The notes beneath the pieces are model-generated. The model saw only the letters and a program-made list of their open reading frames with translations. It had not been told where the DNA came from and did not search any database. The translations under genes and the position numbers were made by a program. From positions 1-14,568 of the forward strand of contig JBBISH010000143.1 in NCBI GenBank assembly GCA_037441385.1: DNA of 14,568 bases. Reading direction: 5' to 3'. The stretch is from Myxococcales bacterium. Lineage in GTDB: Bacteria; Myxococcota_A; UBA9042. Below, piece after piece: positions 168-14,536 of the stretch (within the stretch, counting starts at the first letter, position 1; each line of letters starts with the position of its first letter).

Positions 168-961
168 AGGGCGCGGCGCAGCTTGGCCCAAAGCGCCGGA
201 TCACCAGCCGGACGCTCTGCCAGCTGGCTCACTTCGCTGACGGCCAAGCGACCCGCACGCAGCGCAGCGATCATCGCATCGAGCACCAGGTTGGCGGCCA
301 GGTCCTGCACCACATCGTTGCAGGCCTCCAGCTCGCTGAGCTTGGGTGCCAACACGTTGACCTTCTTGGACTCCAGTACCGACCACGCCTTGAAGTTGTT
401 GGTCACCCGTGCGTCGTCGCGCATGTACTTCGCAAAGAAGTTGGTAAGGCGGTTCAGCGCGTTGCGCTTTGCGCCCTTGCTCGTGAGCGCGGCGATCCGG
501 GTTTTCTCGGCCTGGTACAGCTTCGCCACTTCCTTGATGGGTTTGCGCCACTGTACGGACTGTGCCTGGCTCGAACCGGTGAACTCTGTCGTGGTTTGGC
601 TTAGGCCGACGTTGCGCGTGCGCATGGAGCGCCACATGCCCGCCGAGCCGAGAAACTGCCCAACGCGCATGTGCAGCGCCGCGTGTGCCTCGGCCGAGCT
701 GCGGTAGACCACCTTGTCGCCAGACAGACCAAGCGACCGCTGGTACGCGCGACTGATGCGCACCTTGCGCCGCTTGCTGCTGTAGGGCGCCACGGGCGTG
801 CCAACGTCCGCGCGCTGAATGGCCCGCTCGCGCACATGCTCATGCAGCACCCCGGCCACCTTGACGGCAAGGTCGAGCCGGGAAAGGTTCTCGCCTTTCT
901 TCTTGAGTTCCGCCGCTTTGCCGACCAGCTGGGCGGGAGCGGGTTCAATCTTGATCATCAT
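164..961 (-). CDS. Basic hypothetical protein, possibly virion morphogenesis / head-tail completion (265 aa)
   Basis: Start moved to ATG 961, which overlaps the portal stop as ATGA. GTPVAPYS...GSAGMWRS loosely resembles phage virion morphogenesis proteins; the function call is weak. Confidence 0.6.
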   Translation of the reverse strand: MMIKIEPAPAQLVGKAAELKKKGENLSRLDLAVKVAGVLHEHVRERAIQRADVGTPVAPYSSKRRKVRISRAYQRSLGLSGDKVVYRSSAEAHAALHMRVGQFLGSAGMWRSMRTRNVGLSQTTTEFTGSSQAQSVQWRKPIKEVAKLYQAEKTRIAALTSKGAKRNALNRLTNFFAKYMRDDARVTNNFKAWSVLESKKVNVLAPKLSELEACNDVVQDLAANLVLDAMIAALRAGRLAVSEVSQLAERPAGDPALWAKLRRAL

Positions 962-2448
962 CCACCTGCTGGCCCAGAACCAGTGGGCGCCGCCGGCAAC
1001 GCGCCGAGCAACCTCGTGGTCAGCTTGAGGTTTTCCACAACGCGCTGCTCGGCCGAGGCCGGGTCCAGGTTGTCGCGCCGGCTGAGGTACGCCGCCGGAT
1101 TGTCCTCGCCGTTGCGGTACTGCGCTTGGCGCGCCGCGGCAGCCGTCTCGGGTTCGGCATCCACGAGCCAGTCGCTCCAGTTGACGATCACATCGAGATC
1201 GTCGGGAAGTCGCTGCGAGTCGAACTGGTTCAGCACGCGAACGATCCACACCACGAGCTGCGACTCGGCGCGGTTGAGCGCAACCAAGTACTGCGCCCTG
1301 CGCACCGCCTGGTCGTGTCGGTCCAGGGTCTTGCTCTGCGTGTTGCTGTAAACCTTCATGAACCAGTCGGCCGGAAGTCCGCGCATCACCGCAAACAGCT
1401 TTAGGTTTTGCTCGTTGTGGTTGTCGAACTCCGCCACCTGCAGCTGCGTGTGAACCGCGGAAATCTCCGTGCCGATGGGCAGGCCCACCCAGTGCTCGGG
1501 CCCAGACGGCATACCCGTGGTGTCGACGTAGTTGCCCTTGGTGGTCGCGGCGTTTTCGTCAGTAGACTTGATGACCTTGGTGGGGAACCCCGAGTGCTTG
1601 ATGCTGTGGTCCGTCGACCCGTTGGCCAGGCACAGCGACAGGACCTCGGCCAGCAGGCTCTGGTCCACGTTGGCGGCAAAGTCGCCCTTGGGCGGCTCCT
1701 CGCCGCGAAGGTCGATGACCGGGTATTGGCCGCCGAACTGGTTGGTCAGGTCGTTCACGTCCTTGTTGTAGGGGTTGTACTTGGACCCGTCGTCGCGCTC
1801 GATGTAGATCTGCAGCGAATTCATGATCAGCTTGCCGTACTGAATGCCATCGCCGTCGTTGCTGACCGGCACGCGCAGCCGAATCTCGGCAGCCTTCTGT
1901 GGGTCGTCGGCGTTGAGCGGGTCGCCAGGCGTGACCTCGAACTCGTAGGGGCAGAAGCTGTGCAGCTTGACCTGGCGGATGTCCTTGGGCATCACCACCA
2001 CCAGCACCGTGTTCTGGGTCACCACCTTGCGCAGCGCCGACTTCATCGCGTCGTCGATGGCGCTGCGAGCGTACACGTCCTTGAGCTTGTTGAACTCTTC
2101 CGGCTTGAGCTGGCGCTCAGCAAGCGCCGTGGTGAAGTAGCGCCGCGGCGGCCGGTCGTAGTGCGTCGCCACGTCGCCCACCCAGCGCTTGACCAGGGGA
2201 ATGAAGCGCGGGCGCATCTCGTTGGCGTGCTTGTAGTCGCGCTTCATCGCCGACAGGATGCAGGCGTAGTTGCCCGCGGTCAGCTGGTCGAGCGCGATGC
2301 TCTGGCGCCGCCGGCTGGTGTACGTGTCGTCAAACTGACCGTCCCAGGTGGAGGCCTGCTCGCCGGGCCCAGAGGTCCGGTCGGACTGCCACATCGCCGA
2401 CCACATCGACCGCAACCGCGCGAGAATGCCAATGTTCTGATTTGCCAT
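958..2448 (-). CDS. Phage portal protein (496 aa)
   Basis: Lies immediately after terL and has typical portal size. The C-terminal V.W.D..VD...AA...Q...G segment is portal-like. The call rests mainly on synteny. Confidence 0.8.
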   Translation of the reverse strand: MANQNIGILARLRSMWSAMWQSDRTSGPGEQASTWDGQFDDTYTSRRRQSIALDQLTAGNYACILSAMKRDYKHANEMRPRFIPLVKRWVGDVATHYDRPPRRYFTTALAERQLKPEEFNKLKDVYARSAIDDAMKSALRKVVTQNTVLVVVMPKDIRQVKLHSFCPYEFEVTPGDPLNADDPQKAAEIRLRVPVSNDGDGIQYGKLIMNSLQIYIERDDGSKYNPYNKDVNDLTNQFGGQYPVIDLRGEEPPKGDFAANVDQSLLAEVLSLCLANGSTDHSIKHSGFPTKVIKSTDENAATTKGNYVDTTGMPSGPEHWVGLPIGTEISAVHTQLQVAEFDNHNEQNLKLFAVMRGLPADWFMKVYSNTQSKTLDRHDQAVRRAQYLVALNRAESQLVVWIVRVLNQFDSQRLPDDLDVIVNWSDWLVDAEPETAAAARQAQYRNGEDNPAAYLSRRDNLDPASAEQRVVENLKLTTRLLGALPAAPTGSGPAGG

Positions 2449-2450
2449 GG

Positions 2451-3899
2451 TTAGAACCTATCCTGTTTCGAGTGCTGCCCGTCGCCCGGCTCGGAGTAGC
2501 CGTCTGGCCCCAAACCGTACATCGCCGGCAGCGTCAAATGCAGACGCGAGTCGCGGCGGGCGCCGACCCAGCCGTAACGCAGCGCATCCACGGAGTGCTT
2601 GTGCTCGTTGTCGACCACCACCGGCTTGGGGAACCCGGCCTTGTCGACCTCCCACCGGAACGCCAAAATCGACGGCCGAATACCCGGCGTCTCGCCGCGG
2701 CTCTCCGCTGCCAGCGACTTGGCGAACACAATGCGCGGCGGCCGGCCTGGAGGGTCGAAGGCGTCGCGCAGCATCTCCAGGCCATTGTTGACCCGCTGCT
2801 CGCTGCTCGTTTCCATGGTGATCACCTGAGTTTCGCCGGCAAGCAGGCGCCGCAGGAACCCGTTTTCAGTCACCACCGCGCGATCGGCACATGCCAGCAG
2901 CGGCTTGCTGTTCTTGCGCTTGAGCCAGTCGGCCAGCAGCGTCCGGAACTTGGACTGGTTGAGTCGGCCGTCCGGCAGGTCGCTGGCCTGCGGCACCAGC
3001 TCGTCGGCGACGACCCACTGCTTGGTGATGGGGTTGACGCGGATGTCCAGCGCCACGCAGCCCTTGGTGTCGCCCCAATCGACAGCTAGGACCCACGGCC
3101 ATTTGCGGTGCTCCGCGGTTCGCCAGTCGAAGTCGACCAGGTGCCGCTCGTCGAGCTCGGGGAAAACCACGTGCTCGGGCTTGAGGATCTCGCCGTCGAT
3201 TTCCTGAGCTGCACGCCGAGTACTCATGTTCTCGCGCCAGGCCGCGATGTCCTGCCGGTCCAGGTGCGGGTTGTCGTAGCTGGTGGCGCGGACCACAAAA
3301 TAGCGAATCGCCTCGCCGGTTTGAACAGCGCGATCCTGGGCGTCGCCGAATCGCCGGATGACCGGTGTCACGCCGCGGGGGCTGCAGGTGATGAGCACCT
3401 GTTTGCACGTGCCGATGCGCACGCGCCCGTCCACCACGTCGAACACGTCGCCGTCGTCCACGCCGGAAAAGAACAGCTCGTCCAGCCAGACCCAGGCGTA
3501 CTCCGGGCCGCGCAATTTGTCGTACTGGATGAACCCGCGGAACACGGCCGAGCTGCCGTTGATCAGGGTCAGGATGTTGTTGAGCTTGTCGAACTTGCGA
3601 ACCAGCTGCAGGCCTGTCTCGGCGTGGAACCGGTCGAGCAGCTCCAGCACGCGCGTGGCCAGCTGGTCCATCGCGTCTTTCTTTTCGGTGCGGCCGAGGA
3701 TCGCGCCGCGGTACCCAGGCGACCAGCACAGCATGTGCATGATCGCCCAGGCCGCGCCCGTGTAGGTCTTGCCCGCGCCGATGCCCGCCAAGAACAGCAG
3801 GTAGCGCTGCTCGGCCGCCAGGATGCGCGCCTGCTGATGGTAGGGCGCCAGGATTTTCTGCATGTCGACGTGCAGAGCCCCGTTGATGAGCGCGCTCAC
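2451..3899 (-). CDS. terL: Terminase large subunit (482 aa)
   Basis: Q-motif PYHQQ, Walker A AGIGAGKT, Walker B WVWLDE, SYDNPHL, and nuclease motifs AVDWG and HSVDALRY. GTG start overlaps the upstream stop. Confidence 0.96.
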   Translation of the reverse strand: MSALINGALHVDMQKILAPYHQQARILAAEQRYLLFLAGIGAGKTYTGAAWAIMHMLCWSPGYRGAILGRTEKKDAMDQLATRVLELLDRFHAETGLQLVRKFDKLNNILTLINGSSAVFRGFIQYDKLRGPEYAWVWLDELFFSGVDDGDVFDVVDGRVRIGTCKQVLITCSPRGVTPVIRRFGDAQDRAVQTGEAIRYFVVRATSYDNPHLDRQDIAAWRENMSTRRAAQEIDGEILKPEHVVFPELDERHLVDFDWRTAEHRKWPWVLAVDWGDTKGCVALDIRVNPITKQWVVADELVPQASDLPDGRLNQSKFRTLLADWLKRKNSKPLLACADRAVVTENGFLRRLLAGETQVITMETSSEQRVNNGLEMLRDAFDPPGRPPRIVFAKSLAAESRGETPGIRPSILAFRWEVDKAGFPKPVVVDNEHKHSVDALRYGWVGARRDSRLHLTLPAMYGLGPDGYSEPGDGQHSKQDRF

Positions 3900-4468: not shown

Positions 4469-4540
4469 ACAAAAGCGCCGGTTTGTTCCTGTGGTTTCGC
4501 TCGGTTGCCGGCCGTTCGCCGTGTGCGCTCAAATGCGCTG

Positions 4541-4580
4541 TAAGTCCTTGATCACTGGTCGGGAAAATTTTGCAGTTTTT
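4541..4580 (-). promoter_or_regulatory. Candidate IHF-binding site upstream of terS
   Basis: Minus strand reads AAAAACTGCAAAATTTT-N10-GATCAAGGACTTA. This matches WATCAAnnnnTTR except at the first base and has an upstream A/T tract. Confidence 0.5.
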
Positions 4581-4619
4581 CCGGAGTCGCCAGCCCGCGG
4601 TTTCACCCCCGCCCCTTGT

Positions 4620-4669
4620 AAAAAAGCCGAGGGGGTGCCGGCCCTTTCGAGTCGGCACCCCCTGCAGCT
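4620..4669 (-). terminator. Intrinsic terminator after the repeat-protein gene
   Basis: AGGGGGTGCCGAC-TCGAAAGG-GCCGGCACCCCCT hairpin followed by CGGCTTTTTT on the minus strand. Confidence 0.8.
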
Positions 4670-4694: not shown

Positions 4695-5618
4695 CTAGGC
4701 GACCGGGATGACCCGGATCACGCCGCGCACCGCGCAGTCGCCGCCCGCACCGCCGTTGGTGCCCGACAGCCGCAGCGTCGAACCCTGCGGAACGATGCGC
4801 TTGGTGCGGTCGATGGTGATGCCGGTGATGGTCGAGTGCTCGGTGGTGCCGTTCAGGTTCTTGACCGCCGTCAGGATGCTGACGCCGTCGACCTGCACGT
4901 CGAGCTGGTCGCCCGCGTTGGCCGACGCCGCCGAGGTCTTCCACAGGTCCAGACCGACCACCTCGTACTTGCGATCGGTCACCACGCCGTTGACCGAGGT
5001 GGCCGAGGTGGTCTCCAGCGGGTAGTCCGCCTGCGCCGCCGGCTTGGTGGCCACGGGCGCGTTGGTGCCATCGACGGCGTTGACCAGCTTGCTCGAGTCC
5101 ACCGACGCCGAGGCCAGCTTGGCCAGGGTGACATTGGCGTCCTTGATCTTGGCCGTCTCCACCGCATCGGCCGCCAGCTTGGCCGCCGTGACATTGGCGT
5201 CCTTGATCTTGGCCGTCTCCACCGCATCGGCCGCCAGCTTGGCCGCCGTGACATTGGCGTCCTTGATCTTGGCCGTCTCCACCGCATCGGCCGCCAGCTT
5301 GGCCGCGGTCACCTGGCCATCCGCAATGGCCTGGGTGGTGATGTCCCGCTCGGCCTCGTCGGGGCACGCCTCGGGGCGCTCGTAGGCGGTCACGCGGTAG
5401 CCGCCGCTCGCGCCGTTGATGGTGGGGCTTTGGGCCGCCGTCTTGACCGGGAACCCTTCGCCGGCCTTGACGGTGATGGCCTCGCCACCGATGGTGAAAG
5501 TCATGTCCACGCCGCCGTCGTTCTTGACGTACCAGCCGCCGGCCATGAAGCCGGCATTGAGGGTATCGGCGCCGCCGTCGCAGGTGCCTTCAAACCGCTT
5601 GAATCGCGAGTTGATCAT
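4695..5618 (-). CDS. Putative virion fibre/decoration protein with VTAAKLAADAVETAKIKDAN repeats (307 aa)
   Basis: ATG 5618 has SD GGAG. Beta-rich N- and C-terminal domains flank 10-residue V-T-x-x-K-[LI]-x-x-x-[AN] repeats of the kind seen in phage tail/fibre (WIAG-tail-like) proteins. Confidence 0.7.
   Translation of the reverse strand: MINSRFKRFEGTCDGGADTLNAGFMAGGWYVKNDGGVDMTFTIGGEAITVKAGEGFPVKTAAQSPTINGASGGYRVTAYERPEACPDEAERDITTQAIADGQVTAAKLAADAVETAKIKDANVTAAKLAADAVETAKIKDANVTAAKLAADAVETAKIKDANVTLAKLASASVDSSKLVNAVDGTNAPVATKPAAQADYPLETTSATSVNGVVTDRKYEVVGLDLWKTSAASANAGDQLDVQVDGVSILTAVKNLNGTTEHSTITGITIDRTKRIVPQGSTLRLSGTNGGAGGDCAVRGVIRVIPVA
5128..5306. repeat. Perfect 60-bp tandem repeat, about 3 copies, in frame
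   Basis: Sequence lines 5161 and 5221 are identical; identity extends from 5128 to 5306. Confidence 0.97.
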
Positions 5619-5643
5619 TGTAGTGCTCCGCGCCGGAATGTAA

Positions 5644-5686
5644 CGGCGTCCTGCCAAGCGTAGGGCTCGCCGCGCGCGGGGGTCAG
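5644..5686 (-). promoter_or_regulatory. Putative phage late promoter, copy 2: CTGACC-N13-AGCCCTACGCT-N6-GACGCCG
   Basis: Matches 124-167 in three sequence blocks, in the N13 spacer and in distance to the downstream ATG. Confidence 0.7.
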
Positions 5687-5690
5687 GGAG

Positions 5691-6344
5691 CTACCCGGAC
5701 GTGTCGAGCCAGTGCGCCTGCAGGGCCAGCGCGGCCGCGGGCGAGGGCAGCTGCTTGGGGTACTGGCGCACCATGGCCTCCAGCAGGTCCAGGTTGGCGT
5801 GGCAATCGACCACGGCCGAGTGCGCCCGCCCTTGGTAGTCCAGGCCGAAGCGAGGCAGCATCATCGCCATGCGGTAGCCGCGGTCGAACCTAGCAGCGCC
5901 GTCGATGGCCTTGAGCAGGACCTTAACGTCGAGCCACATCGGGCTCCAGTGTCGCAGGCCAACCACGTCGCGAGTCATTTCCGCTGCGATCATGCTGTGA
6001 TCGTAGTCCGCGTTGTTGCCGATCCAGAGGCGGCGCGGGCGGGCAAAGTCGATGAGCTCGAACTGCGTCGGCAACCAAGCACCGATTGCCGGCGACTGCG
6101 CGACATCCTTGTCGCTGATGCCGTTGATGGCCGTCACCTTGGGCGGGATCGGCCGACGCGGGTTGAATCGCTGGTTGCAGTGCACGCTGCGTGCGCCGCC
6201 CAGCTGACACCGCACGGCGCCGATCTCGACGATGCGGTCATGGTGGGGCGACAACCCCGTGGTTTCGGTGTCGACCGACAGCAGCTCGGCAAACGTCCAG
6301 GTCGCCCACGTATGTTCAATGTCGGTGAAGTGCTTTGCGTTCAT
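5691..6344 (-). CDS. DEDDh 3'-5' exonuclease, DnaQ/epsilon-like (217 aa)
   Basis: ExoI DTETTG, IVEIGAV, ExoII GNNADYD, ExoIII AHSAVVD. ATG 6344 has SD AAGGA. Confidence 0.93.
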   Translation of the reverse strand: MNAKHFTDIEHTWATWTFAELLSVDTETTGLSPHHDRIVEIGAVRCQLGGARSVHCNQRFNPRRPIPPKVTAINGISDKDVAQSPAIGAWLPTQFELIDFARPRRLWIGNNADYDHSMIAAEMTRDVVGLRHWSPMWLDVKVLLKAIDGAARFDRGYRMAMMLPRFGLDYQGRAHSAVVDCHANLDLLEAMVRQYPKQLPSPAAALALQAHWLDTSG

Positions 6345-6379
6345 GGTGCTTCCTTTGCCCGTGTAGCTGGGTCCAGCTG

Positions 6380-6462
6380 TGTCACGAGGCGGGAATCGAA
6401 CCCGAACAGGTAGCAGCAACCTGCCGCGCTAGTCCCGCGGCCACCTTGGCTTCCTCGTGACA
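6380..6462 (-). ncRNA. Non-canonical tRNA-like RNA with a long variable arm
   Basis: Manual fold: acceptor-like TGTCACGAGG/CCTCGTGACA, D arm GCCA-AGG-TGGC, short arm GCG-GGACTAG-CGC, variable arm CAGGT-N7-ACCTG, T arm CGGG-TTCGATT-CCCG. No encoded CCA and no U33. Confidence 0.75.
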
Positions 6463-6466
6463 TTGT

Positions 6467-6491
6467 GCCCGGCCGGACCCTCCGACCGGGC
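6467..6491 (-). other. 11-bp GC-rich hairpin 4 nt upstream of the tRNA-like element
   Basis: GCCCGGTCGGA-GGG-TCCGGCCGGGC pairs fully only as the minus-strand RNA (one U-G pair). No U tract follows. Confidence 0.65.
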
Positions 6492-6568
6492 TGGGGGTTG
6501 CGACGTGCAGCGGCGCCTTGCTTCACCAACCACACACCCCACGTCCGCCGCGCGCAGCGGCAGCGTTC

Positions 6569-7750
6569 CTAAGCCTGCACGGCCTCGAACCCAACGCCCT
6601 GCTCCCGCCGCCGAAACCGCTTGGGCGCCTCGCACAGGCGCTTGGCCCAGGCCGCGGCAGTCGGGTGGGTGCAGTTGATGGCCAGGCGCAGCTGGTCCTG
6701 AATCCAGCCCATGCCGCGCCAGTGGTCGCGCAGGCCCTTGTCCAGCAGCAGCAGCTCCAGGTCGTCGGCGCTCGGGCTGACCAGGGTGACCACCTCGTTG
6801 TGGTACTCGTCTCGGCTGACCACGAACAGGTCAGGCCGGCTCGCCGCCAACGCGACCAGGGCCTCGTCGGTCAGATGGTTCAAACCTTCGGGGCCGATGA
6901 TGCGGCAGCGAAACGTCGCGAGCTGGCCGCCGCGGCTTTTGAGGAACGCGCGCAGCATCTCATCCGGCGGAACCTTGTCGGGCGCGGGCGGAGGCGTGGT
7001 GCCATCCTCCTCGTCCTCGTCGTCGTCGACGATCTCCGCGTCGACCACGTTCGACGGACCCTGCAAGAGCGGACGCTGGCTTTCCTCGTGCTCCAGCTCC
7101 CGCACGGGCGCGCACAGGCGAAGCCGGTCGACTACCACGCCATCGTCGTCGCACACGCCATCGACCGCCCCAGGCGCGGCCGGCGTAACCGGGGCCTGGT
7201 CCAGAATGCCAGGCAAGGGCTGCTCGCCTGGGTTCAACTTGGGCTGCTCGGGCGCCTTCTGAACCATGAACGCCACGATTCGCGCCTTGGCCTTGGCCAG
7301 GCACAGCTTGTTCAGCGCGGGAACCGCCTTGGCCGACATCTTGAAGTGAAAGTTTTCCTTTCCTTCCATGGACACCGAACACCGCTCTTGCGTCACACGG
7401 CCGATGCCGATCCACGTCGCAGCAGGGTGGCCATCCGGCATCGCGCGGGCCGCACACGCGTCGATGGTGTCGGTCGTCGCCTCGCTCGACAGCAACCAGC
7501 TCTCGACCCACACACATACCTCGCGGCCAACGTTCTCCCCAGGCTGGGGCATCGACAACGACGAGTGCGGGCGGAACTCGCCGCAACCGATGTCCAGCTG
7601 CCACCAGCCGGCCTCGGCGACCGATGACCGCCCCAGCTGCACGGCCATCCTGCCCTCCAGGTAGCGCGCCGGCTTGCCGTCCCAGCCGTTGATCAGGTCC
7701 CATTCCTTCTGCGCGTCTTGACGCAGGTCCACATCGTTCGCTTCGGTCAT
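6569..7750 (-). CDS. Hypothetical protein (393 aa): two probable domains joined by an acidic/Pro-rich linker
   Basis: ATG with SD GGAGG, coupled to the recU-like gene. Codon pattern is consistent with neighbours; no family recognised. Confidence 0.8.
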   Translation of the reverse strand: MTEANDVDLRQDAQKEWDLINGWDGKPARYLEGRMAVQLGRSSVAEAGWWQLDIGCGEFRPHSSLSMPQPGENVGREVCVWVESWLLSSEATTDTIDACAARAMPDGHPAATWIGIGRVTQERCSVSMEGKENFHFKMSAKAVPALNKLCLAKAKARIVAFMVQKAPEQPKLNPGEQPLPGILDQAPVTPAAPGAVDGVCDDDGVVVDRLRLCAPVRELEHEESQRPLLQGPSNVVDAEIVDDDEDEEDGTTPPPAPDKVPPDEMLRAFLKSRGGQLATFRCRIIGPEGLNHLTDEALVALAASRPDLFVVSRDEYHNEVVTLVSPSADDLELLLLDKGLRDHWRGMGWIQDQLRLAINCTHPTAAAWAKRLCEAPKRFRRREQGVGFEAVQA

Positions 7751-7754
7751 GACC

Positions 7755-8231
7755 TCAACCCTCCAGCAGCAGCGGCTTCAAGAACTCGACCGCGGCCACC
7801 GCCCAGCCGTCGTCGGGGCCGATGCTGCCGCGCGCGGCATCGACGGTGTGAAACGGCACCAGGCGCGTGCGGCCAAGCGCCACGAAATCCACCAGCACAT
7901 AGCCGGCGCAGTCACGGAGCCAGTCGCGCTGCTGAGGCTCGATGCGGCTGAGCGGCAGCCGCGGCTCCATTGTGGCCTTGCATTCCAGCGCGAACACGTA
8001 GTGCCGGTCGCGGCCGGTGGCCTCAAGCCACACGCCCAAGAAGTCGGTGTGGGCCTTCTTGCCGTGGCGGGCGCGAAAGGTGCCGTCCGCGCCGACCCTG
8101 CACAGTTGCGAGATGGGCGTCGCGACCTTGTCAATGCGGGCCACGCGCATAGCCAGGTAGCGCTCGCACCCCGCCTGAACGGCCCGCTCCAGCGCGTCGC
8201 CGATGTCCTGGCCAGCTGTACGCGCCATCAC
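7755..8231 (-). CDS. recU: RecU-like Holliday junction resolvase (PD-(D/E)xK nuclease)
   Basis: GxxLE, KxxTP, TDFLG, LECKAT and LxxIxxxQxxxL follow RecU motif order. Confidence 0.78.
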   Translation of the reverse strand: MMARTAGQDIGDALERAVQAGCERYLAMRVARIDKVATPISQLCRVGADGTFRARHGKKAHTDFLGVWLEATGRDRHYVFALECKATMEPRLPLSRIEPQQRDWLRDCAGYVLVDFVALGRTRLVPFHTVDAARGSIGPDDGWAVAAVEFLKPLLLEG

Positions 8232-9383: not shown

Positions 9384-10455
9384 GGGCAACCTCCGCAGAC
9401 TTGGCGGCGACCACCAGGTGACCATCGCGCAGCAGCAGCCCACGGTTGATGGCTTGGCGAATGACCTCGATGACCGCGCCGCGGTCGCCGTGGCCGTCTT
9501 GCACCAGCTGCTCGATGAGCGCGGCATGCAAGACGGGCTGTTTCGCAGCCTCCAGCGCCGCCTCTGTGGTGCCGCGCTTGGCATTGCCGAGGCCCCGCTT
9601 GTCCCAGTGCAGGTCCTTGCGGTTGGCCTCGCGCTCGGCGGCGCGCTTGGCAACCGTGGCCTCGCTGGGCTTGCGGCCGGGCAGCTTGGCGTGCTGGTGC
9701 TCGACGCAGAGCCTGGAGCGGCCGGCGGCAGTGCGCTGGCAGTAGTAGCACTTGCGTGGCGCCGGCTCGGCTGGAGTCTCGACGGACTGGCGCGTCCCCT
9801 CATCGTCCAGGTCGACCGGTTCGGCAAGGTCGCTGCTGAACCAGGTCCGGCAGGCCGGGCAGGTGCTGCGGCTGTCGGCGTACTCAGCGGCGCAGACCGG
9901 GCAGTCGCGGGCCAGTCGGTCGGGCTCTCCGGGCTGCAGGTCGCACGGCTCCGTGTCAGTGCTGGACGCCTGTTCAGTGCTGAACGCCTGTTCAGTGTCG
10001 CTCACAAATTCATCGCCGGCCCGGGCAACGGCCGCGTCCAGCGCCGCCAGCTCCGCGTCGCCCGTCGCCCGCAGATGGTCAAGCTGCTCGGTCGAGACCG
10101 TAGTGGCGATGGCTGCCTCGGTCTCGGCCATGGCCGCCTGCTCATCGCACCAGCACGCGTCGCAGATGTCGCCCAGGTCAATGCGCGTTCCGCAGGCCCT
10201 GCACGGGTAGTTTTCATCGCTGAGCGCGGTCGGCTGGGTCGAGCTGCGCATGAGCTCCGCAGCCAGCGTCTCGTGTGTGGCCAGATCCTCGCGGGCCTCA
10301 TTCAGGGCAAGCTGGACCGCCAGCAGCGACGCTTCCACCATCCGAATTGCATGCAAACAGTCCGCTACCTTGGCGCGCCGCTCGTCGACGCACTTGGCAA
10401 TCGTCAGCAGTTGTTGACCGCGCGCCGCCATCGCTACCGTGTCCACCGTGTACAT
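9373..10455 (-). CDS. Hypothetical multi-zinc-ribbon protein with an N-terminal coiled coil (360 aa)
   Basis: ATG 10455 has SD AGGAGG. Motifs CRAC..CDAC, CPVC..CPAC and CYYC..CVEH. Confidence 0.78.
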   Translation of the reverse strand: MYTVDTVAMAARGQQLLTIAKCVDERRAKVADCLHAIRMVEASLLAVQLALNEAREDLATHETLAAELMRSSTQPTALSDENYPCRACGTRIDLGDICDACWCDEQAAMAETEAAIATTVSTEQLDHLRATGDAELAALDAAVARAGDEFVSDTEQAFSTEQASSTDTEPCDLQPGEPDRLARDCPVCAAEYADSRSTCPACRTWFSSDLAEPVDLDDEGTRQSVETPAEPAPRKCYYCQRTAAGRSRLCVEHQHAKLPGRKPSEATVAKRAAEREANRKDLHWDKRGLGNAKRGTTEAALEAAKQPVLHAALIEQLVQDGHGDRGAVIEVIRQAINRGLLLRDGHLVVAAKSAEVAHAG

Positions 10456-10465
10456 CGCCCCCCTC

Positions 10466-11065
10466 CTACTGCGGCCCGAGCCACATGACTTCCGCGCGGT
10501 CACCAGCACGCCGCGCAATCTCGCGCACCATCGCCAGCCCGGCCGGCCCGCCGCCCCACACCACCAGGCACGAGGCGAACGTGCCGCCGCCGCTGATCTG
10601 GATGCCGGCGCTGTTGCAGAAGTGCACCCGGCCGCGAATGGCAATCACCGCGCGCGCCAGGCCGAAGATGGGGCCCCACCAGTACGACTCGCTGGGCCGG
10701 AAGGGGATCAGCGCGACGATGGGGTCGGCGCGGCCGGCGCGAAACTCTGCCGCACACTTGCCCATCCAGCGCTCGAGCTGGCTGGTGTTGTTGGGGTCGC
10801 GGTTATACGGCGGGTTGCAGTAGACCAGCGCCGGCCTGGGCGACACATGGGGCTTGCCGCGAATGGGGCCCCACGCCTCGCTGAGGCCATCGCCGCCCTC
10901 GCAACCCACGATGTGGCGCACGGCCGGGAAGCGCCGCGCCGGCTCCGCGCACGGGTCCAGGTCGACCTTGCCCACCCAGCTTGCGATGAGCGGCGGGGTG
11001 TAGAACTCGTCCGAGCGCGAGGTCAGGGCCTCGGCCGCGACTTCAAGCAGTCTGAGTTGAGCCAC
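10466..11065 (-). CDS. dam: Phage-type DNA N6-adenine methyltransferase (Dam family)
   Basis: SDEFYTP, DLDPCA, DGLxxxW, catalytic NPPY, and RGRVHF. Confidence 0.9.
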   Translation of the reverse strand: MAQLRLLEVAAEALTSRSDEFYTPPLIASWVGKVDLDPCAEPARRFPAVRHIVGCEGGDGLSEAWGPIRGKPHVSPRPALVYCNPPYNRDPNNTSQLERWMGKCAAEFRAGRADPIVALIPFRPSESYWWGPIFGLARAVIAIRGRVHFCNSAGIQISGGGTFASCLVVWGGGPAGLAMVREIARRAGDRAEVMWLGPQ

Positions 11066-12533: not shown

Positions 12534-12814
12534 GCGGCACCTCGAACTGCGGCGGCGCGCCGGCACAGGCGGCACACGTGGGGAGCTGCGGAGAGGTCGG
12601 GTTCGGCCAGAGGGAGGTGGTCGGTGTTGGCGTCGAACGTCCACTTGCCACATGCCGAGCGAGAGCCGTCGCGCGTGTCCCGGTAGAAGTGCCAGCGCCA
12701 CTCCTGTGGACGTTGCTCGGGAGTGCCGGCGGCGATGCCTTGCCAAGGCCAGCACCAGCCGGTTCCAAAGCAAGCAGCCTCAGCCGCGGCCTGGTACTGA
12801 ATGGCTGCGCTCAC
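12530..12814 (-). CDS. Small putative zinc-finger protein (94 aa; WHFY...SACG...CxxC)
   Basis: GTG 12814 overlaps the Gp37Gp68 stop; its own stop overlaps the ASCH start. Confidence 0.7.
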   Translation of the reverse strand: MSAAIQYQAAAEAACFGTGWCWPWQGIAAGTPEQRPQEWRWHFYRDTRDGSRSACGKWTFDANTDHLPLAEPDLSAAPHVCRLCRRAAAVRGAA

Positions 12815-13755
12815 GACGCACCTCCCACCTTCGGGAACTGCTGCACCTGGAGGTCGGCGGGCCACTCGGCGGGGTTGGCCCCAGCACGGTCCCAGATGAA
12901 GTCGTGAGCATCGCGCCGAGCCGAATCGCGGAGCACACGGCCGCGCTCGTGAGGATTGGACCCGAGCTGCTTCATGAAGAACGGCACGCCGGCCACCGCG
13001 CACTGGTCACGCACCGACCTCGCCCAGGCCAGGTCAAACGGACGGGCCTTGTCGCCGCTCTCGCCGCCGCAGATCACCCACCCGATACCGGTAAGATCCA
13101 CGTCGCCCAAGTGCTCAAGCTGCGGCTCAACCGACAAGAACCGCAGCGCCGCTGGAATCTCGCGCAGGTGGTCAATGCGGCTCTTGCGCTGCCGGTCTTC
13201 TACGGTGGTGCCAAGCCAGACGTTCGCAGGTGGAGTGCCGTTCAGCCAGCCGCCCACCATCAGACATCCGTCGAGTTGGTTGCGCACCCCATCGTTGAAC
13301 GCGGCCCGCAAACGTTCCCTCCAAAGTTCAGGCCGCTTGGTCAGCAGTAGCCAGTCCAAATGGGGGGTACGCTCAATGACCAACAAGAAGTCGGACAGCC
13401 ATTCAACCGGGACCTCATGATCAAGCCAGTCCGCCATGCTGGCGCAGAAGACGCGGGCGCGCCGGAGTTCCCCGATAGCGCCGAGCTGACCACAGGCACA
13501 GTCAAGCGCGCGGTAACACGGCTGGCCACAGTCCACGCAAACGCCACCATCCGCCTCGCGGTTCCACTTCAACGGCTCGCGCCAGTTTTTCACGGAAGTG
13601 CGCCGCCGGTCCTTGCCGATGCCCCAGTGTCCGCCCAGAAAGCGCTGGTCAACGGCCTCGGCGTAGCAGTTGGCGCATCCGGGCGAGACCTTGGTGCAGC
13701 CCCACCACGGGTTGAACGTGTGGTCGCACCAGCTAATTTTGGTGTCCTTGCCCAT
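12811..13755 (-). CDS. Phage Gp37Gp68 / DUF5131 family radical-SAM-like protein (314 aa)
   Basis: TKISWCDHTFNPWWGCTKVSPGCANCYA (CX6CX2C), VFCASMAD, LLTKRPE, FLSVEP, WVICGGESG, PFFMKQLG. Confidence 0.95.
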   Translation of the reverse strand: MGKDTKISWCDHTFNPWWGCTKVSPGCANCYAEAVDQRFLGGHWGIGKDRRRTSVKNWREPLKWNREADGGVCVDCGQPCYRALDCACGQLGAIGELRRARVFCASMADWLDHEVPVEWLSDFLLVIERTPHLDWLLLTKRPELWRERLRAAFNDGVRNQLDGCLMVGGWLNGTPPANVWLGTTVEDRQRKSRIDHLREIPAALRFLSVEPQLEHLGDVDLTGIGWVICGGESGDKARPFDLAWARSVRDQCAVAGVPFFMKQLGSNPHERGRVLRDSARRDAHDFIWDRAGANPAEWPADLQVQQFPKVGGAS

Positions 13756-14418: not shown

Positions 14419-14449
14419 TGCGCGCCGCGACCGGCCTTGTCAGGAAGCG

Positions 14450-14478
14450 CGCGGGTTCAAGTCCCGTCCGCTCCGCCA
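14450..14478 (+). pseudogene. 3' fragment of tRNA-Asp; probable att core
   Basis: CGCGGG-TTCAAGT-CCCGT-CCGCTCC-G-CCA gives a T arm, acceptor 3' strand, G73 and CCA, as in bacterial tRNA-Asp (5' GGAGCGG). No 5' half is present upstream. Confidence 0.85.
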
Positions 14479-14494
14479 AGTGTTCCCGTTCATC

Positions 14495-14536
14495 GCGAAA
14501 GGCTCAGATTCCACTACGGATCTGAGCCTTTTTCGC
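14495..14536 (+). terminator. Intrinsic terminator downstream of the tRNA fragment, possibly bidirectional
   Basis: AAAGGCTCAGAT...ATCTGAGCCTTT stem ending in a T5 run, with outer GCGAA/TTCGC pairing. Confidence 0.85.

Follow-up and report, generated by a model that had tools for sequence, protein, structure and literature searches.

Phage tRNA genes are now viewed as tools against the tRNA-targeting defences of the host, and irregular genes resembling the selenocysteine tRNA (tRNA-Sec) have been catalogued, few of which have an assigned role. The window analysed here, the whole stretch of 14,568 nucleotides of DNA, poses a question that touches on both: what is an 83-nt stretch, lying inside a phage operon, which keeps the elbow and the acceptor/T half of a tRNA and has lost the features required for decoding? 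The answer that we favour, tentatively and at rather less than an even chance, is that it specifies a non-decoding, class-II-derived (Ser- or Sec-like) tRNA-like phage RNA that would be excised by RNase P and 3' processing, punctuating the operon transcript.

The element and its arms are listed here, indexed such that position 6462 is index 1 and position 6380 is index 83:

6380..6462, minus strand, 83 nt: tRNA-like gene (sequence, Rfam tRNA-Sec alignment and fold z score)
6453..6462, minus strand: 5' strand of the terminal, acceptor-like stem, forming a perfect 10 bp with 6380-6389 (index 1-10 with 74-83)
6440..6450, minus strand: minimal D arm, with a GCC/GGC stem and the loop AAGGU, which contains GG
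6425..6439, minus strand: anticodon-like arm, with the 4-bp stem CGCG/CGCG and the 7-nt loop GGACUAG
6407..6423, minus strand: long variable arm of 5 bp with a 7-nt loop, a class II feature
6390..6404, minus strand: T arm, with the 4-bp stem CGGG/CCCG and the loop UUCGAUU

An earlier annotation made from the letters of the window, to which we refer as the sequence-only reading, had described a perfect 10-bp terminal stem abutting a 4-bp T stem with a TTCGATT loop, a minimal D hairpin keeping its GG and a long variable arm, all of which are present when the minus strand is read. All 26 pairs of the cloverleaf are of the Watson-Crick type, with neither a mismatch nor a G-U pair. The geometry may be taken as 9/4, where the G at 6461 is position +1 and the A at 6380 is the discriminator, or as 10/4; the continuous acceptor/T helix accordingly spans 13-14 bp with the -1/73 position paired, and a fifth pair in the T stem, beyond its four, would be a U-C mismatch. 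Two nucleotides, AA, link the terminal stem to the D hairpin, which has an alternative pairing of 4 bp with an AGG triloop, whilst a single unpaired G lies between the anticodon-like and variable arms, and UU between the variable and T arms. The acceptor stem is separated from the variable arm by 29 nt. As previously noted, no CCA is encoded, the bases that follow the element being CAGC.

The preservation of the elbow, through the T loop UUCGAUU and the GG of the D loop AAGGU, and the loss of the decoding features had also been proposed, and both are borne out by the sequence. The loop of the anticodon-like arm, whose stem is indeed only 4 bp long, carries G33 in place of U33, together with A37, and its nominal anticodon is ACU; the CUA that it contains is displaced by one position, and we found no other pairing that would bring it to positions 34-36.

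Whether this is nonetheless an ordinary tRNA was addressed with ARAGORN and Rfam, which bear out the contrary view of the sequence-only reading. Default ARAGORN reports 0 tRNA genes and no tmRNA over the whole window, and Rfam returns 0 matches in the window at its gathering thresholds, from which it follows that the general tRNA model (RF00005, cut-off 29 bits) stays below 29 bits. The best-scoring Rfam family for the element is tRNA-Sec (RF01852), at 39.4 bits (E 1.4e-6, 351 nt searched), which is below its own gathering cut-off of 47 bits; the full length of the model (1-91) is aligned to 6381-6461 on the minus strand. In this covariance-model alignment the acceptor, T and variable stems are of 9, 4 and 5 bp, whilst five positions of the D arm and four of the anticodon arm (7 residues versus 11 in the model) are deleted. 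ARAGORN names the element 'tRNA-Ser(act)' when relaxed (-ps90, thresholds at 90 %), for which it has to displace the acceptor into a 7/5 arrangement that contains two mismatches. The tRNA-like domain of tmRNA was considered and rejected, ARAGORN finding no tmRNA and Rfam none. Its arms and these alignments identify the element as a descendant of the long-variable-arm class of tRNAs, yet as no ordinary tRNA.

The predicted fold is more stable than chance would provide, with a minimum free energy (MFE) z score of -2.76 and an equally stable structure in none of 200 shuffles. The MFE being -40.1 kcal/mol, the variants of the cloverleaf, which evaluate at between -35.9 and -37.8 kcal/mol, lie 2.3-4.2 kcal/mol above it, and a gap of this size is usual for tRNAs. 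The 10-bp inverted repeat alone is unremarkable in a GC-rich window, since perfect 10-bp inverted repeats with a spacer of 40-100 nt number 2 in the window, compared with a mean of 2.9 in 300 dinucleotide shuffles; the significance lies in its combination with a T arm and with helices nested inside it. The other such repeat, at 10415-10502 with arms beginning at 10415 and 10493, lies in the overlap of a 423-aa ORF and the methyltransferase ORF.

The main alternative, if a rather unlikely one, is that the element is a decaying, functionless pseudogene of a class II (Ser-like) tRNA that the phage formerly carried; it would have lost nucleotides of the D loop and anticodon stem as well as U33, and its perfect stems would be due to chance or to its having arisen recently. 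It falls below threshold in every detector, and its D and anticodon arms are truncated; inactive allo-tRNA pseudogenes are, moreover, known according to the accessible text of PMC5389517. Decay of this kind would have to reconcile 26 pairs having zero mismatches and zero G-U pairs with losses that spare everything outside the decoding limb, and an anticodon stem that is shorter yet still paired, which amounts to matched deletions on both of its strands. It would also have to account for the position of the element in one of only two large gaps of a gene-dense phage.

How the element relates to known irregular tRNAs can be judged by its geometry. Its resemblance to tRNA-Sec consists of the 9-bp acceptor and 4-bp T stem (a 13-bp stack), the long variable arm, the 2-nt linker, the small D loop with GG and the canonical T loop. 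Unlike tRNA-Sec, it has neither the UCA anticodon nor U33, and its discriminator is A. According to the accessible text of PMC7609411, the D and anticodon stems of tRNA-Sec both measure 6 bp and its D loop 4 nt; those stems of the element measure 3-4 bp and 4 bp, and its anticodon-like stem can reach 6 bp only at the expense of the D stem. No gene family of the Sec pathway was matched in the window. Compared with a canonical bacterial tRNA, the element shares the T-loop consensus and G18 G19, with a purine, A37, also present, and lacks default detection, 7/5 geometry, a 5-bp anticodon stem and U33.

The allo-tRNAs offer a further comparison. As far as the accessible text of PMC5389517 describes them, these combine a 12-bp branch of 8/4 or 9/3 geometry and a long variable arm with an anticodon stem longer than normal and a long D stem capped by a tetraloop; phages of alpha-proteobacteria carry (8/4) tRNA-Ser and tRNA-His; and an inactive allo-tRNA-UAU group, apparently unused in translation, is reported alongside allo-tRNA pseudogenes. 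Mukai et al. 2017 (PMC5389517) also catalogued tRNA-Sec-like 'false positives'. The element resembles this irregular set and the allo-tRNAs in its lengthened acceptor, 4-bp T stem and long variable arm, and some members are likewise phage-borne or apparently non-translating. It differs from the allo-tRNAs in that its D and anticodon stems are shorter than normal rather than longer and U33 is lacking, and probably also in its stack, which, depending on where the mature ends fall, would be of 13-14 bp, as in the continuous helix, rather than 12. A motif look-up in the supplementary text of Mukai et al. (sheets of 731, 111 and 54 rows) gave 0 occurrences of the motifs of the element in the part available. 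By these comparisons of arms and motifs, the element is a variant of the irregular tRNA-Sec-like genes of phages and bacteria, outside both the allo-tRNA and the tRNA-Sec families.

Could such a molecule decode? A working, unorthodox adaptor would be either a serine tRNA reading AGU through the anticodon ACU or an amber suppressor acting through CUA, and we regard this as very improbable. The name given by relaxed ARAGORN and the long variable arm speak for it, and allo-tRNAs of odd geometry do translate in E. coli, as described in the accessible part of PMC5389517. That ARAGORN model, on the other hand, requires the two mismatches in its shifted acceptor, and the element has G33, its anticodon and D stems comprise 4 and 3 bp, and CUA is out of register. 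As predicted from the pairing, the D/anticodon limb falls about 3 bp short, with about 7 stacked pairs versus about 10, and since the loop also lacks U33, the adaptor would be unable to span the ribosome. Codon usage tells against it as well: TAG stops 8 of the 18 putative genes, an in-frame TAG is needed by none of them, and AGT occurs at 2.1 per 1000 codons. Amber suppression and recoding were rejected on codon usage.

Two minor features of codon and word usage may be recorded here. At 66 % G+C, it is unusual that 8 of 18 putative minus-strand genes should have TAG as the stop codon. The window is also strongly depleted in the tetranucleotide CTAG, of which base composition predicts about 44 copies and 8 are observed; five of the eight are at gene stops and one is in the anticodon-like loop of the element.

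The surroundings of the element had been supposed to be those of a phage, and matches to PHROG and Pfam, with terminase and portal-like genes among them, agree. The recognisable features of the window are:

958-2448, minus strand: portal-like gene (comparison of TerL-portal synteny)
2451-3899, minus strand: large terminase, TerL (Pfam, PHROG and NCBIfam profile matches)
4695-5657, minus strand: repeat protein of 320 aa (profile matches)
5691..6344, minus strand: DnaQ-like DEDDh 3'-5' exonuclease of 217 aa (Pfam RNase_T 1.6e-20, PHROG 192, NCBIfam DEDD exonuclease families)
6569..7750, minus strand: orphan 393-aa gene upstream of the element (no family match)
7755-8231, minus strand: Holliday-junction resolvase (profile matches)
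10466-11065, minus strand: adenine methyltransferase (profile matches)
12811-13755, minus strand: DUF5131 protein (Pfam 7e-79)
14436-14478, plus strand: 3' half of tRNA-Asp, comprising the GUC anticodon loop, T arm, 3' strand of the acceptor, G discriminator and an encoded CCA ending at 14478

Judged by its terminase and portal-like genes, the window is temperate (pro)phage DNA. The segment at 14436-14478, whose best match in E. coli is the 3' end of tRNA-Asp, is followed by a strong intrinsic terminator, a hairpin at 14497-14532 with a T-run (the whole feature spanning 14436-14534 on the plus strand), and looks like the att site of the phage, either attR or attP. This pairing of a tRNA-Asp 3' half with a terminator at the right end is the signature of an att site and is the reason for considering the phage temperate. 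No integrase was recognised among the window ORFs scanned with Pfam, PHROG and NCBIfam.

The use of a tRNA-type att site by the phage itself raises the further alternative that the element acts as DNA, either serving tRNA-targeting integrases as a landing pad or secondary attachment site or forming a protein-binding inverted repeat near a replication/recombination module, its 10-bp arms forming a perfect inverted repeat. We give this only a slight chance. The arms are unique in the window, neither the terminal-stem 10-mer nor its complement having another copy there, and the nested helices and T-loop consensus have no rationale at the level of DNA; the window ORFs scanned, as stated, include no recognised integrase. 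An att fragment was rejected for the reason that the element is a complete cloverleaf in mid-operon, rather than a 3'-only part of a tRNA.

Two of the genes listed have additional matches. The repeat region of the 320-aa protein (residues ~100-225) matches 'tail fiber' PHROGs, pentapeptide and decapeptide repeat models and, weakly, PADLOC PD-Lambda-5_A, and its gene is placed at the end of the early operon, away from the tail genes. The DUF5131 protein also matches PADLOC PDC-M41B and PDC-M30B and, less strongly, the NCBIfam 'radical SAM mobile pair protein A'.

The element lies on the same strand as all of its flanking genes, inside an operon and between the 393-aa orphan gene and the exonuclease. 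The start of the latter is the ATG at 6344, where a database protein (P0019) also begins, and the only close relative (P0020, 68 %) begins at the same ATG, so that it has no N-terminal read-through in which the element would be exposed; an ORF translated across the element has no counterpart in the protein database. The 393-aa protein has no match in Pfam, PHROG, PDB, NCBIfam or PADLOC and has three relatives among 1.84 billion cluster representatives, themselves without a Pfam match, one relative (P0140) being 64 % identical. A language-model score (Atlas, 0.82-0.83) provides a weak lead that it may be a single-strand annealing protein; its AlphaFold2 model, at a pLDDT of 45, is too poor for a fold search.

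These neighbours do not favour the idea, raised in the sequence-only reading, that the element is the ligand of a protein encoded beside it: one is a DnaQ-type DEDDh exonuclease and the other an orphan without a recognisable RNA-binding family. In none of 8 phages sampled from 108 records of exonuclease homologues was a tRNA-like element detected within 1.5 kb of the homologue (by annotation, Rfam and R1, a covariance model built on the element), so that the element is not tied to this exonuclease family. The related alternative of a Y-RNA-like tRNA mimic is affected by the same count. Mimicry of tRNA is indeed known among the Y RNAs of bacteria and phages: in the accessible text of PMC4201824, YrlA has a T arm, a D-like loop and a reduced anticodon region, can serve as a substrate for RNase P and the CCA-adding enzyme, and is found in phages, with a Ro60/Rsr gene adjacent and a long Ro-binding stem. 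The flanks of the element have some complementarity, through which Deinococcus_Y_RNA aligns weakly, at 15.8 bits (E 3.2) against a cut-off of 80; in contrast to Y RNAs, these flanks form local hairpins with no long terminal stem, there is no adjacent TROVE gene, and Pfam finds no TROVE (Ro60/Rsr) domain in 29 + 10 ORF translations. Whether as a Y-RNA-like mimic or as the specific ligand of a neighbour, this explanation is largely refuted and we find it scarcely credible.

What the operon itself offers is a set of local hairpins, as follows:

4617..4664, minus strand: canonical intrinsic terminator of the operon of the element, a strong hairpin with a U-run
6365..6378, minus strand: weak hairpin of 5 bp, directly 3' of the element
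6467..6491, minus strand: GC-rich hairpin of 11 pairs, one of them G-U, with a GGG loop, -23.4 kcal/mol

The phage is gene-dense apart from two large intergenic gaps, one of which is occupied by the element. Here, the GC-rich hairpin at 6467-6491, the second strongest local hairpin of the minus-strand RNA, ends 4 nt before the 5' end of the tRNA-like structure and has no U-run after it. The strongest, at 4629-4664 (-28.6 kcal/mol), is found in the other large gap and is the true terminator of the operon, for the reason that a U-run follows it. We count it in favour of a processing mark that each large gap contains one of the two strongest hairpins of this strand. On the 3' side of the element, the weak hairpin is followed by a Shine-Dalgarno sequence, AAGGAAG, at 6349-6355 and then by the ATG of the exonuclease at 6342-6344. 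A scan of 5600-7900 found no terminator-like site and a single promoter-like site, at 5617-5644, with none between the upstream gene and the element; with neither terminator nor promoter before it, the simplest view is that the element belongs to a polycistronic transcript, which would end at about 4617. The hairpin at 6467-6491 could itself be a plain U-less terminator or an attenuator. After the operon terminator and before a putative small-terminase gene there is an unusually A+T-rich stretch (4470-4664, minus strand), which is probably the boundary between the early/middle and late operons.

The suggestion that the element is a processing signal would provide the best fit to this local anatomy, and we build our favoured reading, the non-decoding processing mark, upon it. 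The acceptor/T half and the elbow are the parts of a tRNA that are read by RNase P, by the enzymes of 3'-end processing and CCA addition and by T-loop modifiers. The element, made within a polycistronic minus-strand transcript, would be cut at its 5' end by RNase P, the simplest site being the junction of U(6462) with G(6461), which puts a U at position -1, where RNase P commonly prefers it. Its 3' end would be trimmed, endo- or exonucleolytically, to about 6380, and a stable RNA of about 80 nt (some 81 nt), with or without CCA, would be released. The message would in this way be split into an upstream mRNA ending in the 6467-6491 hairpin, which may shield its 3' end after cleavage, and a separate exonuclease mRNA, uncoupled from the upstream one. 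The homology to tRNA, the geometry, the lost decoding features and the position in the operon after a U-less hairpin are all observed; we infer from them that the element is transcribed and cleaved, and that it may thereby influence how the flanking genes are expressed.

Arrangements of this type have been described elsewhere. A tRNA-shaped module, mascRNA (Rfam RF01684), is situated at the 3' end of MALAT1, and the t-elements of plant mitochondria are tRNA-like processing marks, as presented in the accessible text of PMC1920247. In common with these, the element is tRNA-shaped, non-decoding and embedded in a longer transcript, and an RNase P cut at its 5' side would leave an upstream RNA ending in a protective structure. 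They differ from it in being eukaryotic or organellar and in showing no sequence relation to it that we could find, and the processing that they undergo is for the element a prediction. By this analogy, such tRNA-shaped processing marks would be its nearest functional analogues.

The element could also be a decoy or sponge, an excised RNA, with or without added CCA, that titrates a host factor binding the acceptor/T half or the elbow. Such a factor might be an immune effector directed at tRNA, a toxin, or an enzyme that modifies or charges tRNAs. The elbow and the acceptor/T helix are intact and the decoding features are gone, and the long variable arm is a recognition feature of the SerRS type, according to the accessible text of PMC5389517. 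Phage tRNAs do counter tRNA-targeting defences (PMC10264068, PMC11464382 and PMC11555353, in the parts accessible), but the published cases are working tRNAs with altered anticodon loops, and among the matches listed in a literature search no title or opening of an abstract describes a phage tRNA-like decoy. Furthermore, the element would be poor bait for anticodon nucleases, since its loop GGACUAG is unlike that of any cellular anticodon arm. Neither a defence or counter-defence gene nor a tRNA enzyme was recognised near the element with PADLOC and NCBIfam. We consider the decoy quite improbable on this balance. A broader proposition is that the phage keeps a 'top-half-only' tRNA mimic, excised from an early operon, for mascRNA-like punctuation by RNase P, as a sponge for acceptor- or elbow-binding factors, or for both; this we think unlikely, if less so than the decoy taken by itself.

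If the element is indeed a phage RNA that has only the enzyme-recognition half of a tRNA, it would extend the concept of phage tRNAs from 'replacement adaptors' to 'non-decoding mimics', and should punctuation by RNase P be correct, it would be a clean bacterial case of tRNA-type mRNA processing within a protein-coding operon. As one sequence without known relatives, its value is that of a precise, testable candidate over that of a discovery.

Relatives of the element were sought in several collections. Against 50,697 phage records, neither the whole window (megablast) nor the region 6340-6520 (blastn) gave a match. The 83-nt element, compared by blastn with phages and plasmids at E up to 10, gave only pieces of 17-35 nt, which in phages lie mostly over the T arm of ordinary tRNAs and in plasmids are scattered. 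An exact-pattern scan of genome contigs for the anticodon-like arm together with the T loop found 0 stretches. That no relative appears in the collections searched is a further point for the pseudogene; known from one sequence, the element would look the same whether selection had maintained its shape, as the sequence-only reading proposed, or it were a young relic.

The terminase was used as an anchor for a search of related loci. TerL has few relatives, nearly all of them from metagenome-derived sources and the close ones, P0002-P0005, at 73-77 % identity, and the TerL-anchored scan gave 80 loci, the best with only 34-36 % TerL identity, which are mostly alphaproteobacterial and possibly gene-transfer-agent-like. 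Across these 80 loci, the covariance model R1 scored nothing above 20.2 bits (E 0.27), and an Rfam scan by E-value of five of them (L001-L005) gave 0 matches. In four (L001-L004), only the module of TerL, portal and a 361-aa protein is syntenic with the window, and the exonuclease and the 393-aa gene are missing.

In the 60 of the 80 loci scanned with ARAGORN, only ordinary-looking tRNAs were found. Two alphaproteobacterial loci gave a 91-nt 'tRNA-Ala' with its anticodon at position 31 (L013, 3190-3280, and L014, 3980-4070, both on the minus strand); these calls are probably false positives, being unconfirmed by Rfam at gathering thresholds. Both of these loci carry the terC RNA motif.
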